Virus record (IMG/VR): IMGVR_UViG_3300014806_000004
DNA: 64,000 nt
From: a virus
Direction: 5' to 3' (one strand)
Shown: positions 35,417-55,457 of the stretch, one piece after another
Position numbering within the stretch: the first letter of the stretch is position 1
Layout of the letters: every line of letters starts with the position of its first letter
Made by a program: the position numbers and the translations under genes
The notes under the pieces: model-generated
Databases searched by the model: none
What the model saw: the letters and a program-made list of their open reading frames with translations, nothing else
What the model was told of the DNA's origin: nothing

Positions 35417-36271
35417 ATGGGATATAGTATCAAAAAACATAGTCTCTATTCTTATGTTCAAATTGTAACAATTCCCTTCACAGACATTGAAAAAATTGAC
35501 TTTGCCTTATGCAATCAACCGACGGAAACTCCAGATGCTTATTATAAAAGACAGGCTACTAAACCAGATATTATTACTAATGGAGGTTTCTTTGCCATGA
35601 ATAATGGCAACACTTGCTTTAGTTATAAAGACGAAGGAACTGTTATTTAGTCTGATTTTCGTCATGGAGTTGCAATTAGCGGCAATAAAACACTTATATA
35701 TACAACATTAAAAGATTATGAAACCGCTAGAGATTTTATCGCAGCTTATCCTGCATTAATTGTAGATAGCAAAAAAGTAGTTATAACAGATGGAAAAGAA
35801 TTAGATTATAAAGCCCGCAGGACTTGTATTGGATGGAATAAAAATAATTATTATATTGTAACCGTAGATTCTCCAGGTCTTGTTTATGCTGCCCTATAGC
35901 AAATTTTTCTTGAATTGAAAGTAGAATATGCTATTAATTTAGATGGAGGCGGATCTACTAGATTACTAATAGATGGGAAAAGAAAAACTTCTCAAATTTA
36001 TGCAAGACCAGTTGATAATGTAATGTGTGTATATTTTAAGAAAGAACAAGAGGTAGTTCTTTACAGAGTTCAAGTAGGAGCATTTCTATCTAAAACCAAT
36101 GCAGAGAATATGTTAAAGGAATTGGAAGAGAAAGGATTTAGCGGGTATGTCAAGAAAGTAGGAATTTTTTATAAAGTTCAATTAGGTGCTTTCTCTGTGA
36201 AATTAAATGCAGAAAGACTAAAAGATAAATTAAAATCTGCTGGATATAGCTCTTTCATTACAAAAAAATAA
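35417..36271 (+). CDS. phosphodiester glycosidase-family domain + C-terminal SPOR domains; 2 in-frame TAG
   Basis: NLDGGGST motif; two SPOR-like repeats (YRVQVGAF..., YKVQLGAF...). Confidence 0.5.
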
Positions 36272-36273
36272 AA

Positions 36274-37683
36274 ATGACTAATGCTCAAATTATTTGGAAA
36301 TACTTTAAAGGCAAAGGTTTTAGTGATCGCGGAATTGCCGGTTTAATGGGTAATCTTTATGCCGAAAGTGGTCTTAATTCTATTAACTTATAGAACACCT
36401 ATGAAAAAAAATTAAAAATGACCGACGCAGGATATACCTCCGCAGTTGATGATGGAAGGTATAAAAACTTTGTAAAAGATGGGGCGGGATATGGATTGGC
36501 TCAATGGACATTTTGGAGCAGAAAACAAAATTTGCTTTAGTTCTGTCAAAGTCGAGGTAAATCCATTGGAGATTTAAATACTCAATTAGATTTTTTATAT
36601 TAGGAGTTAATTACAAGTTTTTCTAGTTTAGTTAAAATTTTGATTTCTGCCACTTCTGTCACAGAAGCCTCTACCGCAGTATTACTCTAGTTTGAAAGAC
36701 CTTCAGACTAGAGTTTTTCTATGCAACAAAAGAGAGCTAATTATGGTCAATAGTATTATAATAAATTTGCTAACATTTCAAATGTAATTGAAGGAGGTAA
36801 TAAAATGAAATATAGCGATAGCAATAAACCACTTCAATGTATGATGACAAATAGCACTTGCTATAAACAAACACGCACCATGCAAGTTAAAGGAATCTTA
36901 TGGCATAGTACTGGTGCAAATAATCCTAATTTAAAAAGATATGTATAGCCAAGCGATAATGATCCTAACTACACCAGTTTAATAAATAAATTAGGAAAAA
37001 ATACTAGCAAGAATGACTGGAATCATATATCTGTTCAAGCTGGATTAAACTGTTGGATTGGTAAATTGGCTGATGGAACAGTAACAACAGTATAGACAAT
37101 GCCATGGAATTATCGTCCTTGGGGATGCGGTTCTGGGTCTAAAGGTTCTTGTAATAATGGATGGATTCAGTTTGAAATTTGCGAAGATGGATTAAATGAT
37201 GCAAATTATTTTAACAAAATTTATGAAGAGGCTTGTCAAATTACTGCTTATTTATGTAAAATGTATAACATAAATCCATTGGGAACCACTACTTTAAATG
37301 GTATCACCGTTCCGACTATTTTATGTCATGCTGATAGTCACAAGCTAGGATTAGGATCTAATCATGCAGATGTAAACCATTGGTTTCCAAAATTTGGGAA
37401 AAGCATGGAAACCGCAAGAACAGATGTTTATAATTTAATGTCAAATATCTAGGAGGATGATGAAGATATGACTGACGAGAAATTCGCTGAACTTATGAAT
37501 ATTTGGCTTACTAATAAAGCTAATGAAAAAGAAACTTGGGGCACCGATAATCTTGAATGGGCTAAAGCGAATGGGATTATGGCTGGAGACAGTGCTGGAA
37601 GAATGATGCCAAATAAATTCTGTACTAGATTAGAAACTGTAACTATGTTAAGAAGATTGGCTGAAAAGCTGGGTTTAAAATGA
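36274..37683 (+). CDS. multi-domain endolysin: phage-tail-lysozyme-like domain + N-acetylmuramoyl-L-alanine amidase + SLH-like wall-binding motif; 9 in-frame TAG, TGA stop
   Basis: GLMGNLYAES...GYGLAQWT lysozyme block; ...LLQFERPSDQS.SMQQKRANYGQQYY (Q = TAG); amidase block ILCHADSHKLGLGSNHADVNHWF; C-terminal W..ANGIM.G...GRMMPN..CTR.E.V.ML.RLAE; strong internal SD GAAGGAGG before in-frame ATG 36805. Confidence 0.5.
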
Positions 37684-38015
37684 AAAAATTAGAATTTTCC
37701 AAAAAACTTATAAATGATATTCGTATGTTATTATGGGTCGTGACTGTGTCAGGTATCCTTTTGGCATTTATGTGTGTTTATATGGGATATTTAGGAACCC
37801 TTCCATGGATTAGTGCTCTTGTTGGTCTACCATGGAGCGCCCACGGAGTAGTTTGTTCTTTTTATTTAGCAATGGCTAAATCAGATCACAAAAAGGGCGG
37901 CATTACTTATGACCTAGCTTTAAAAGAAACTGAATTCAATTCTGCATATAACATCCCCGCAGAAGATTTTTCAGCCTCTAATGATATTCCCATTGATCTC
38001 GATGGTCCTATTTAA
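37680..38015 (+). CDS. holin-like membrane protein (no TAG)
   Basis: ATGA overlap with endolysin stop; two predicted TM helices; small size. Confidence 0.45.
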   Translation: MKKLEFSKKLINDIRMLLWVVTVSGILLAFMCVYMGYLGTLPWISALVGLPWSAHGVVCSFYLAMAKSDHKKGGITYDLALKETEFNSAYNIPAEDFSASNDIPIDLDGPI

Positions 38016-38017
38016 TA

Positions 38018-38055
38018 TAAAGGCTTAATGAGTTAAATACTCATTAAGCCTTTAT
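38018..38055 (+). terminator. rho-independent terminator
   Basis: AAAGGCTTAATGAGT-taaat-ACTCATTAAGCCTTT + ATTTGTTTG. Confidence 0.55.
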
Positions 38056-44917: not shown

Positions 44918-45829
44918 ATGATTATAGGGTTATTATTAATTACTATAATCGGGTTAATAATTTATATCTATTATCTCAAGAAACAAGAGCATCAAATAAT
45001 TGAAGTTAATATAGATAATTAGAGGAAAAACTCAGAGATAGAATAGGAAATAAAACATAATAGAGAAGTATTATCTAATATAAAAGAAAATATATACTCT
45101 GAAAATGAAATTCTTTCTTCTCTAGTAAAATCTTAGGAAGAAATGCGGGAAAATGCACAAAAGCAAGCTGATGAGGCATACTAGATTCGCATTTCCGCAC
45201 TTTTAAAATCCTATGAAGAAAAAGAAAATGAGCTTACTATGACTTTTGATGCTAAAAGTCAAGATTTATCAAATAAAATTTCTATCGAATCCAGTAAATT
45301 AGCGGATTTACAAGCTAAACAACTTGCTTATATTTAGGCTCAACAAAGATAGGAAGAGATTGACTCTAATCAAGATTACTATCGTTTAGCTCTTGATGAA
45401 ATTGATATAAATGATATTACATTATTGCGTGAGTTGCAACCTAGATTTGTCAAAAAAGAAAGCATAGATAAGTTAATATGGGAAGTGTATTATAAACCAG
45501 CTTATGATATATTAACAGCTCGGTTATTCCCAAAAGCAATTAAATATTGTGGGATTTATAAGATAACTGATTTGACCACTGGGAAATCCTATATAGGATA
45601 GTCAGTTGATATAAAAGAACGTTTTAGACAACATATTAAATCTGCTTTAACTTACGGAAAAGCAACCAATAAACTATATTCTACCATGTAGAAATCTGGA
45701 GTTCATAATTTTACCTTTGAGATTTTAGAAGAAGTTTCAAGGGAAAATTTAAATGAGAGAGAAACTTATTGGATTGAGTTTTATAAAACGAAAGATTTTG
45801 GTTTAAATACTACTCGCGGAGGATCTTAA
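44918..45829 (+). CDS. GIY-YIG homing-endonuclease-like protein (N-terminal TM helix + coiled coil, C-terminal GIY-YIG); 8 in-frame TAG
   Basis: GIYKITDLTTGKSYIG-(TAG)-S...R..H...YG...N, a classic GIY-YIG core; invisible in ORF track because of TAGs. Confidence 0.55.
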
Positions 45830-52898: not shown

Positions 52899-54650
52899 TT
52901 GGAATATTCATTAATTAACCCAAGAAATTAGGATTATAGTGCTTTAGAGTAGGTATTAGTTAATAGAGGTATTAAATATGGTGATATATAGCATTATTTA
53001 ACAGTATCAGAAAAAGATAATTTATCTCCCTTACTTCTTAATAATATTGAAAGCGCTGCTAAGCTAATTATTAAGCACATTTTAAAAGATGATTCTTATA
53101 TCTATGTCTAGGTAGATAGCGACTGCGATGGTTACACCTCTTCTGCATTATTGCTAAATTATCTTCATGCGCAGTTTCCCTCTGCAATTAACAAGTTTGT
53201 TTATAACTTCCATTCTGGTAAAATTCATGGAATAAAACCAGAATTAATCCCCGATAATATTTCTCTTGTTATTGCACCGGATTCAAGCTCTAACGACTAT
53301 CAAGAGCATGAAGAATTGGCTAATCGCGGAATTGATGTATTAGTTATAGACCATCACTTAGCTGATAAAATATCTGAATACGCCTGTGTTGTTAATAATC
53401 AGTTATGCGATTATCCAACAAAATCGTTATCTGGTGTAGGAGTAGTTTATAAATTGTGTTAGTATATGGATAGTATTTGCGGAACTGCCTATGCGGATAA
53501 TTACCTTGATATTGTAGCCACCGGTCTTGTAGGAGATATGATGGATATTAGAGATTTTGAAACTCATTATCTTATTCAATAGGGGCTACAGAGGTCAAGT
53601 CTCCGCAATCCTTTTATTAAAGGTATGGCTGATAAAAATGCTTATTAGTTAGGCAGAGGAGATTTATCTCCTATTGGAGTAGCGTTTTATATTGTTCCTC
53701 TTGTTAATGCCATTACTCGTATGGGTACTCAAGATGAAAAGTAGATTTTATTTGAAAGTATGCTTGAATGGAAAGCATATGATCTTATTCCTTCTACTAA
53801 ACGAGGATGTAAAGGGCAAGAGGAAACTAGATTAGAGCAAGCATTAAGAGTTTGCACTAATGTTAAGAATCGTTAGACTAGAACTAGAGATGCCGAAGTT
53901 GAACAAATAGAAAATATTATTCAAGAAAAAAATCTATTATAGCATAAACTTTTAGTAATTAAACTAGAAGATATGTAGGTTGATAGAGGTATTACTGGTT
54001 TAATTGCTAATGAATTAATGAGTAAGTATAAGCGCCCCGTTATTCTCTTATCAAAGACTGTAAACAATGAACAAGATGCTTGGGAGGGATCAGCTAGAGG
54101 ATACGAAAAGTCTAAATTAAATGATTTTAGACAATTTGTAAGAGATTCAAATTTAGTCTTTTTAGCTGAGGGGCACGCAAATGCTTTTGGCTTTGGCATT
54201 TATGAAAAAGATTTTGAAGATTTTATTATATGGTCAGACAATCAATTAAAAGATATAGAATTTTCACCAAGCTATAAGGTAGATTTTATTTACTCTATGT
54301 CAGATATTAATTCTAAAGATATATTAGAACTAGGTAATTCTAAGTATCTTTGGGGATAGAATATCGACGAACCGTTAATTGCGGTAGAAAATGTTGCAGT
54401 AACAAATGACATGATTAGTCTTATGTCACGAGACAAGAATCCTACTTTGAAGATTCAATTACCAAATGGAGTTACTTGCATCAAGTTTAAATCAAGCGAA
54501 GAGGAGCTAGAAGATTTATCTAGCGAATTAGGTTGCGTGAGTATAAATTTGATTGGTAAACCAGAAGTAAATAGATACTTCGGTAGTGTGACACCACAAA
54601 TTATTATTACAGATTATGAAATTATAAGTAGATAGAAGTATTACTTTTAA
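52899..54650 (+). CDS. RecJ-like DHH-family phosphoesterase (about 13 in-frame TAG; TAA stop)
   Basis: DHH motifs DSDCDGYTS, D..DHH (LVIDHHL), GVGVVYKL; SD AAGGAGAG + TTG start; ORF track shows only fragments. Confidence 0.5.
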
Positions 54651-54689
54651 TGATTGCGCAACCTCTTACTAAAGGAGGAAACAATCACA

Positions 54690-55457
54690 ATGAGACGTTT
54701 TATGAGTATTATACTAAGTTTAATCATTTTATTATCTATAATGTGTAGTTGCAATAGTCCATTTATTTCTGTTGCATCAGCATACTCAGTTCAGTATAAC
54801 AGCAATACAAGTTATACCTATAATGATTTAGATACATTGATTGAGCTTATTGCGGAACAAATTTCTAACATGAATGCCGCACATCAAATGGCTGATGCCG
54901 CTAGGCAATTAGGTTATTCTGAAAACCATGATGTTATTGAGTTAGCCGTAAATGAATATGATAAAGCTAATGAATTAAGACAATCCTATCAAAACGTATA
55001 TGATAACCTCATGGAACACTGGCATCAAAAGGAAAAAGAGTACCCAGTAGCAACATATATATGGAGCTATTTCAAAGACCTAGGTTATAATAATCAAGTG
55101 TGTGCTGGAATACTTGGTAATATAATGACTGAAGTTGGTGGTAATACCTTGAACATTCAATATGAATTAGGTAATTCTTCATATTATGGGATGTGTCAAT
55201 GGAATAAGGCGTATTCTGAGGTTTGGGGAGCCTCATTAGAAGAGCAATGCAATTATTTGGAAAATACTATTGAATATGAATTTAATACATTCGGTCATGC
55301 CTATAAGAGAGGGTTTGATTATGAAGATTTTCTAAATATGACAAGTATAACTGATGCTGCTTTAGCGTTCGCGAAATGCTATGAAAGATGCAGTTCTGGA
55401 AGTTATACAGTACGACAAAATAATGCGATAATCGCATATAATTATTTTGTAAGTTAA
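54690..55457 (+). CDS. secreted phage-tail-lysozyme-family protein
   Basis: Signal peptide MRRFMSIILSLIILLSIMCS; GILGNIMTEVGG...GMCQWN block. Confidence 0.5.
   Translation: MRRFMSIILSLIILLSIMCSCNSPFISVASAYSVQYNSNTSYTYNDLDTLIELIAEQISNMNAAHQMADAARQLGYSENHDVIELAVNEYDKANELRQSYQNVYDNLMEHWHQKEKEYPVATYIWSYFKDLGYNNQVCAGILGNIMTEVGGNTLNIQYELGNSSYYGMCQWNKAYSEVWGASLEEQCNYLENTIEYEFNTFGHAYKRGFDYEDFLNMTSITDAALAFAKCYERCSSGSYTVRQNNAIIAYNYFVS

Follow-up and report, generated by a model that had tools for sequence, protein, structure and literature searches.

A TAG-recoded endolysin gene with two candidate internal start sites in the lysis module of a gut phage

Phage endolysin genes in which a shorter product starts inside the reading frame of a longer one have been described in two forms. 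Type I internal starts are known from Ply2638A and Ms6 LysA, and Type II internal starts from CD27L, CTP1L, CS74L, Lys170 and LysIME-EF1 (PMC12203907, PMC9430671, PMC4777826). By the published criteria, such starts have a strong ribosome binding site (RBS), lie in a linker between domains and are conserved in their cluster (PMC9430671). The Type I endolysin Ply2638A of the staphylococcal phage phi2638A combines two catalytic domains with a wall-binding domain, and an in-frame RBS and ATG between the catalytic domains gives rise to a short isoform, composed of Amidase_2 and the binding domain, beside the full-length enzyme (PMC12203907). In the Type II enzymes the in-frame RBS and ATG precede the binding domain, and the free binding polypeptide oligomerises with the full-length chain (PMC4777826, PMC4110038, PMC7098653, PMC9430671). 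LysBT1 from a Brevibacillus thermoruber prophage, reported in 2025 as the first SLH endolysin, carries an Amidase_2-type domain and one C-terminal SLH motif that is reported to mediate trimerisation (PMC12285257), and in crAss-like (TAG) and Agate (TGA) phages the lysis genes are preferentially recoded beside replication genes in the standard code (Borges et al., 10.1101/2021.08.26.457843). The locus analyzed here, in a 64,000-nucleotide stretch of the IMG/VR virus record IMGVR_UViG_3300014806_000004 (the window), appears to bring these features together in one endolysin gene (36274–37683, + strand). Each feature is already known among phages and the combination in one gene seems to be new, to the extent that a search of the open-access literature, which is weak evidence, found no description of Type I and Type II sites, a single SLH motif and TAG codons in the same gene.

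Positions 35417–38015 of the window constitute a three-gene lysis module of a ~148-kb phage from gut metagenomes in which TAG is recoded to glutamine, in agreement with the original prediction of a lysis cassette at this locus. The central gene encodes what is predicted to be a three-module endolysin: a phi29 gp13-type lysozyme-like glycosidase, an N-acetylmuramoyl-L-alanine amidase and one SLH wall-binding motif. On balance, the best overall explanation is that this recoded module contains an endolysin with two internal starts, at ATG 36805 (codon 178, Met178) and at ATG 37468 (codon 399, Met399). Three nested products would probably be made, a 52.8 kDa full-length protein, a 33.0 kDa amidase-SLH protein and an 8.1 kDa SLH protein, and the shorter two would probably correspond to the published Type I and Type II sites. 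The isoforms are predicted from sequence signals. The original prediction had drawn attention to the first of the two starts and is incomplete, as it mentions neither the second, for which the codon-level signal is better supported, nor the fact that the annotated start at 36274 has no Shine-Dalgarno (SD) sequence.

The endolysin is, from its reading frame and its orthologs, evidently a single recoded gene in which TAG stands for glutamine. The open reading frame (ORF) runs for 469 codons from ATG 36274 to the TGA at 37681–37683 with nine in-frame TAGs (36391, 36538, 36601, 36688, 36709, 36751, 36946, 37093 and 37450; codons 40, 89, 110, 139, 146, 160, 225, 274 and 393) and no internal TAA or TGA, as had been noted for ~1.4 kb. 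TAA and TGA together account for ~5.4% of codons when that frame is read across the window, which puts the probability of 469 stop-free codons by chance at ~4e-12. Of the 23 glutamine-type codons of the endolysin, 9 are TAG, vs 39 of 492 in the remaining ORFs of the 16–64 kb part of the window (Fisher p = 7.6e-5), and no TAG occurs in the neighboring genes for PhoH, RNase H, gyrase B/A and ligase. A protein search identified 7895 endolysin homologs with E ≤ 0.001 among 8000 scored, and both catalytic domains occur in one chain of 442–487 aa in 120/120 of the homologs listed (120 of the 7895), often on contigs of ~145–149 kb. In the fetched DNA, all 89 loci with the amidase motif, the window included, have one unbroken frame of at least 468 codons, and the same single frame is present in eight distinct orthologs (63–99% identity) with 0 to 12 TAGs. 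One ortholog, L010, has no TAG and its fusion is therefore an intact ORF whatever the code; this ortholog and the fused architecture common to thousands of homologs are among the reasons for reading the frame as a single gene. In 28 distinct TAG-free orthologs, the columns of the window's TAGs hold glutamine in 28/28 at codons 225 and 274, in 23/28 at codon 40, in 14/28 at codon 146 and in 11/28 at codon 139. The phage also encodes a suppressor tRNA with anticodon CUA (14850–14925, + strand) in its tRNA array, the presumed decoder of the in-frame TAGs. This tRNA shares 64% identity with the phage tRNA-Gln(UUG) and 65% with tRNA-Trp, a similarity that does not tell the amino acid carried by the suppressor. 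TAGs that align to glutamine in conserved genes and an encoded tRNA-CUA together identify this as a code-15 (TAG to glutamine) phage. Searched with blastn against 50,697 phage records, the cassette found no match, and with tblastn no record covered at least 80% of the endolysin.

The module composition first proposed for the protein, lysozyme-like, amidase and SLH-like tail, was recovered with Pfam, the tail as a probable SLH motif. Phage_lysozyme2 (PF18013) covers residues 3–165 (E = 1.8e-35; 122.6 bits vs a cutoff of 28.2), the family profile matches phi29 gp13 (E = 3.1e-7), and Foldseek aligns the domain with 3csr (E = 3.8e-5; template modeling (TM) score on the target 0.67). The A30-E31-S32 motif is invariant, and a profile score above the curated cutoff combined with a lysozyme-like helical fold places the domain in Phage_lysozyme2, with catalysis predicted. 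Amidase_2 (PF01510) covers residues 202–353 (E = 1.7e-11; 45 bits vs a cutoff of 26), and its assignment is likewise based on a score above the cutoff and on the peptidoglycan recognition protein (PGRP)/T7-lysozyme fold, with Foldseek matches to AmiE, PlyP100, AmiA, PlyL, PlyG, XlyA and LytA (E 2.7e-6 to 1e-3; TM(target) up to 0.76). Invariant residues H211, H352, H364 and D366 are compatible with a candidate metal site. The SLH match (PF00395; residues 422–454) reaches 19.8 bits, just under the 20.8-bit cutoff, and of 16 family members, 15 have an SLH match (best E 4.8e-7). The conserved W429, G434-x-x-x-G438 and T451-R452-x-E454 match the W, GIIxG and TRAE signatures of SLH domains (PMC12285257). 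The family profile reaches only E = 0.7 against the SLH domain of Sap, and membership of the tail in SLH rests on sequence. LysBT1 shares the Amidase_2-type domain and the one C-terminal SLH motif with these signatures, and differs in that its paper reports no internal start and in that it has neither a second catalytic domain nor recoding; that paper reports no earlier SLH endolysin, whereas the present family has thousands of metagenomic members (PMC12285257). Elsewhere in the window (54654–55457), a second Phage_lysozyme2 protein of 267 aa (domain at 132–265; E = 1.4e-17) is encoded without TAG beside a recoded RecJ-like gene.

The first internal start lies in the linker between the two catalytic domains. 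The sequence GAAGGAGG (36790–36797, + strand) is followed, after a 7-nt spacer, by the in-frame ATG 36805, and the pair falls at a linker of low predicted confidence (residues 168–176). The strong SD and in-frame ATG reported here at the start of the amidase part hold up well, in that ATG 36805 ranks first as an SD-preceded start among the 312 internal in-frame ATGs of 49 ORFs in the window. The nested ORF that it would open (36805–37683, + strand; candidate Type I start) contains the amidase and SLH modules (292 aa, 33.0 kDa) and three TAGs. Across the 89 loci (38 distinct 30-mers, 50–97% protein identity) the ATG and the Lys-Tyr that follows are invariant, while the linker residues before Met178 vary (EGGNK, KEEMAK, IGGISG, QEVSK, TGGTK, EKGDGGT, SGGK and others) and a purine-rich SD-like element is kept 5–12 nt upstream, at times in another codon register. 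Ranked by the predicted energy of pairing with the anti-SD, the element falls among the best 2% of windows of its own gene for 79% of the 38 versions and among the best 5% for 95%. Synonymous resampling of the seven codons before Met178 produced p values that are skewed low (median 0.15; 37/38 below 0.4), a result that is supportive and not decisive because amino-acid choice carries much of the signal.

Dozens of stand-alone amidase genes in bacterial (Oscillospiraceae) genomes begin at this same Met of the MKY motif. The SD and ATG of the Met178 junction also occur in standard-code genomes, including isolate genomes (L097–L099 and L101), and the site is therefore not an adaptation to recoding. 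These comparisons mark the site as the original start codon of an amidase endolysin, kept when a lysozyme module was joined in front of it. An independent C-terminal product from 36805, raised as a possibility from the sequence, is plausible, as the SD and ATG are kept while the linker changes and the same Met starts stand-alone amidases. An in-frame RBS and start in the inter-catalytic linker that is kept among relatives is the pattern of a Type I internal translational start site (iTSS). In a recoded relative on a 239-kb contig (L083, 2985–3015), three TAGs (tag tag caa tag) are located in the linker just before the Met178-type SD, and this cluster could be a leaky split point between the catalytic domains.

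The second internal start, ATG 37468, opens the SLH module and is preceded by the codons TAG GAG GAT GAT GAA GAT. The SD sequence AGGAGGA (37451–37457, + strand) lies within TAG GAG GAT, with its GGAGG 11 nt upstream of the ATG, in an acidic linker of low predicted confidence (residues 392–400). The nested ORF (37468–37683, + strand; candidate Type II start) would encode SLH only (71 aa, 8.1 kDa) and contains no TAG. All SLH-type versions have GAGGAGGA 8–11 nt before Met399, with 11 nt in the window and 8 nt in several relatives. The codon-level signal comes from glutamate: in 50 distinct genes, the glutamate codons at the SD positions are GAG in 86 cases vs GAA in 4, compared to 390 vs 714 in the rest of these genes (odds ratio 39; nominal p = 1e-31, the sequences being related), and in the three codons nearest to the ATG they are GAG in 1 case vs GAA in 38. 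The same site is found in the stand-alone amidase-SLH endolysins of Dulem virus 33 and of Colidextribacter, Acutalibacter and Oscillospiraceae genomes. The endolysin of Dulem virus 33, annotated as 'PGrP protein', is 44.5% identical, has the same SD and ATG in the SLH linker and precedes a gene for a homolog (65% identity) of the putative holin discussed below; it differs in the lack of a lysozyme module and in its standard code. ATG 37468 ranks fourth among the internal ATGs of the window, and its in-frame RBS and start in the linker before the binding domain, kept among relatives, follow the Type II pattern. A three-codon mini-ORF in another frame (37460–37471; ATG AAG ATA TGA) ends in a stop codon overlapping the Met399 ATG; it also occurs in several relatives ('gatgaagaYATGA') and not in L010.

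Considered together, only five of the 312 internal ATGs reach an SD duplex of −10 kcal/mol, and in every version a start codon follows each motif after 5–12 nt (ATG, save for GTG in L030 at Met399). The AlphaFold2 (AF2) model of a 99%-identical protein (P0002) has five segments with a predicted local distance difference test (pLDDT) score <50. Two of these, residues 168–176 and 392–400, end at Met178 and Met399, and the other three are short loops within domains. With a strong RBS, a linker position and conservation in the family, both starts thus conform to the published survey criteria (PMC9430671). Several observations weigh against this reading. Local mRNA accessibility at both sites is only ~1 standard deviation above the gene mean, and the counts of versions overstate independence, as the sequences are related. 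At Met178, the synonymous p values of single sequences are mostly 0.05–0.35, the SD signal is carried mostly by amino acids (Gly-Gly, Glu and Lys), to which a need for a flexible Gly-rich linker could contribute, and one version (L008) has only a weak SD (−4.8). At Met399, the SD spacing of 11 nt in the window is long and the acidic linker may owe its conservation to the protein.

The distribution of TAG adds less than it first appears to. The window endolysin has six TAGs before Met178, three from Met178 to Met399 and none after, and with one representative per recoded SLH-type lineage, TAG makes up 1 of 29 glutamine-type codons in the SLH segment vs 46 of 174 upstream (p = 0.004). A depletion of this kind could be taken as a sign that the SLH ORF is expressed independently of the code, but this was downgraded because TAG is avoided at gene ends in the window generally: the last 15% of the other window genes holds 2 of 54 TAGs vs 29 of 224 CAA/CAG codons, and TAGs lean towards the 5′ half of genes (mean relative position 0.42 vs 0.50). 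The depletion is consequently not specific evidence for an SLH product made independently of the code.

The alternative that survives best, although it is improbable, is that both SD and ATG pairs are inert scars of the fusion of a lysozyme module to an amidase-SLH gene and that only the full-length protein matters. The stand-alone amidase genes that begin at the same Met are what such a history would leave behind. The endolysin of the Faecalibacterium phage FP_Lagaffe (phrog_20388) points the same way, with a lysozyme-like N-domain of 51% identity and the same junction (GGAGG and ATG at residue 184) placed before a different second catalytic domain; it differs further in its SPOR repeats and standard code. 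The two catalytic modules are arranged the other way round, with the amidase ahead of the lysozyme-like module, in Butyrivibrio and Lachnospiraceae genomes and in some other metagenome-assembled genomes (MAGs) binned as Christensenellaceae, Succinivibrionaceae and Clostridia (L104, L105, L114, L115, L120, L122 and L141), which implies frequent module shuffling, and the phi2638A paper itself puts forward gene fusion as an origin for Type I iTSSs (PMC12203907). Scars should decay, however, and this junction has an invariant ATG and a preserved SD at 50–97% identity, with linker residues that turn over. The 39-fold synonymous bias to GAG occurs exactly at the SD positions of Met399, and both types of site have been proven functional in other endolysins (PMC9430671, PMC12203907).

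If the preferred reading of two working internal starts is correct, the in-frame RBS and ATG pairs observed at the two linkers would provide, beside the full-length enzyme, amidase-SLH from Met178 and SLH alone from Met399. The nine TAGs would make the catalytic protein dependent on the phage tRNA-CUA, so that no active enzyme would be expected until the cell reads TAG as glutamine, as in the published model for recoded lysis genes (10.1101/2021.08.26.457843). Following the example of Ply2638A, the amidase-SLH isoform would contribute amidase activity; Ply2638A differs in its modules (M23 peptidase and SH3b, compared to lysozyme-like and SLH here), in its standard code, in its single internal start and in its isoforms, which are experimentally shown there and predicted here. 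The free SLH isoform would co-assemble with enzyme-bearing chains into a wall-binding unit, a proposal modelled on CD27L, CTP1L and Lys170 and on the trimers in which single SLH motifs function (LysBT1, SlpA); the LysBT1 precedent in particular makes it reasonable to propose that free SLH completes a trimeric binding unit (PMC12285257). The CD27L-type enzymes differ in having one catalytic domain and unrelated binding domains, unlike the single SLH motif and the additional Type I site in the same gene found here. Should both starts work, one endolysin gene would yield three nested products and combine both published classes of start, and the supply of extra SLH subunits in trans would give a reason for the existence of single-SLH endolysins. 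The 6, 3 and 0 spread of TAGs would further make the isoforms unequally dependent on the code switch, a testable link between recoding and the control of lysis.

A more elaborate version of this mechanism, a speculative one with low odds, is a code-sensitive device with three outputs that acts as a rheostat for the timing of lysis. Because the isoforms would need zero (SLH), three (amidase-SLH) and nine (full length, plus two in the coupled upstream gene) TAG read-throughs, SLH would be made before the code switch and the isoform ratio would track the activity of the suppressor tRNA. As a single SLH motif must trimerise, early and catalytically empty SLH trimers would gradually be replaced by enzyme-bearing heterotrimers, leaving the trimers progressively loaded with enzyme.

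Slightly less credible still is the idea that the SD-like motifs are intragenic pause sites that slow ribosomes at domain boundaries for co-translational folding and do not serve initiation. Both motifs are indeed found in predicted flexible linkers right after a folded domain, and the 11-nt distance between the Met399 motif and the ATG in several versions exceeds the optimum spacing. Pausing would not need the in-frame start codon that follows each motif at 5–12 nt in every version, GTG in L030 included, nor would it account for the same Met being a real start codon in stand-alone genes. Finally, the readings of 36274–36804 and 36805–37683 as two genes, the outcome named at the outset as a refutation, or of the whole as a decaying pseudogene, with the TAGs as real stops, are excluded by the comparative data and are barely credible: the standard code leaves pieces of ≤117 codons and L083 clusters three TAGs just before the SD, yet the TAGs of the window sit inside conserved domains at conserved glutamine columns, 469 codons lack TAA and TGA, L010 and 27 other orthologs have unbroken fused ORFs under any code, a tRNA-CUA is encoded, and the first TAG at codon 40 would leave a useless 39-aa peptide.

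With two internal starts as the favored explanation, the annotated 5′ start deserves attention. ATG 36274 is located 2 nt after the TAA of the upstream gene (35417–36271, + strand) and has no SD (duplex energy +2.0). The upstream gene encodes an accessory wall enzyme of 284 aa with an NAGPA phosphodiester-glycosidase domain (52–206) and a SPOR domain (216–282), and its two TAGs (35648 and 35897) bear out the earlier remark that this glycosidase-SPOR gene is recoded as well. It is present in the closest relatives only, including L001, L011 and L095, and the SD-less endolysin start is limited to lineages with this gene (the window, L011, L013 and L077); most relatives that lack it have a clear SD, such as GGAGGTGA, before the endolysin start. 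Because ATG 36274 has no SD, synthesis of the full-length protein probably depends on termination-reinitiation from the NAGPA-SPOR gene, itself with two TAGs, and the internal starts may dominate the output. SPOR domains bind glycan strands whose peptides amidases have removed. Speculatively, the NAGPA domain could detach wall polymers linked to peptidoglycan via GlcNAc-1-phosphate and the NAGPA-SPOR protein may act after the amidase.

The lysis module is bounded upstream by a terminator-like hairpin after the PhoH-like gene (35367–35394, + strand; 12-bp stem and T-run) and downstream by another (38017–38055, + strand; 17-bp stem and T-run). A promoter scan gave 27 sites, not above the 22.8±4.3 of shuffled sequence. 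A 13-bp hairpin followed by TTTTCT in the lysozyme domain (36684–36714), whose arms hold TAG codons 139 and 146, was considered as an attenuator, given its likeness to a translation-coupled terminator, and set aside for lack of conservation: apart from the window, only L001 and near-identical copies have it (−16.5 to −17.0 kcal/mol), and relatives at 91% identity and beyond do not.

The third gene (37680–38015, + strand) overlaps the TGA of the endolysin with its ATG (ATGA) and encodes a protein of 111 aa. Its label as a holin is consistent with its position and with two hydrophobic segments (~16–36 and 41–64; maximum Kyte-Doolittle (KD19) hydropathy 2.28), but the protein has no match in Pfam, PHROGs (E ≤ 1) or NCBIfam, and none of the 120 matches listed from its 353 homologs is named or has a Pfam domain. 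The N-terminus has a net charge of +3 and the C-terminal 40 residues form an acidic tail of net charge −6. A small protein with transmembrane segments, an endolysin neighbor and a charged C-terminus has the traits of the holin class, with permeabilisation predicted only, and a holin role is the likeliest guess. In 58 fetched loci a homolog is encoded downstream of an endolysin, with several endolysin architectures represented; the loci include the 40-kb Dulem virus 33 and standard-code bacterial genomes, some of which are from cultured isolates. The gene was also described as unrecoded, and it does lack TAG, but the contrast with the endolysin is void: the gene has no glutamine codon at all (no CAA or CAG), which accounts for the lack of TAG, and its orthologs have 0–4 TAGs. 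A recoded endolysin followed by an unrecoded holin is not a conserved design.

Recoding in this phage resembles that described by Borges et al. (10.1101/2021.08.26.457843) in the phage-encoded suppressor tRNA and in a heavily recoded gene of the homing-endonuclease type. It differs from the crAss phages in phage lineage and host phylum. Further, the lysis module here is an island inside a region of nucleotide-metabolism and replication genes that is almost free of TAG, and a rule of recoding in 'late genes only' is too simple for the RecJ-like gene with its 13 TAGs. The phAss-1 recoded-phage paper (PMC10607447) shows no sign of describing this lineage. Genome hits of the family are overwhelmingly to Oscillospiraceae and other Clostridia, with cultured isolates among them (Oscillospiraceae bacterium 50-58, Colidextribacter, Acutalibacter, Flintibacter, Muriventricola and Pseudoflavonifractor), two ~148 kb contigs placed in Eubacterium and Oscillospiraceae MAGs show 84% and 77% identity, and annotated relatives of single modules occur in Faecalibacterium, Acutalibacter, Evtepia and Oscillospiraceae phages. 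From these hits, the host is probably a species of Oscillospiraceae or related Clostridia. The family is a very large one from uncultured gut Clostridia phages, and standard-code annotation shreds the gene; expression of these enzymes calls for replacement of TAG by CAG, and multiple products are to be expected.

Several other features of the window should be noted. Amid TAG-free replication genes, the RecJ-like gene (52899–54650; DHH/DHHA1/RecJ_OB exonuclease) has its 13 TAGs and a GIY-YIG protein gene (44918–45829), with a hydrophobic N-terminus, has eight. The tRNA array (180–15983) comprises 23 ARAGORN calls including the tRNA-CUA, a tmRNA (4123–4438) with the tag DNDYFENYFAA is present, and Rfam identifies a 117-nt tRNA match (6989–7105) that was not called by ARAGORN and may be an interrupted tRNA. 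A run of tail-fibre-like genes (9197–13398) carries 5, 2, 5 and 2 TAGs, the first gene with an Mtd_N domain (Major tropism determinant N-terminal domain; E = 2.8e-13). Two adjacent TAG-free genes (16227–20600) encode a DUF2828/DUF7788 protein (506 aa) and a protein with Major Vault Protein shoulder/repeat domains (813 aa), an unusual pairing for a phage.

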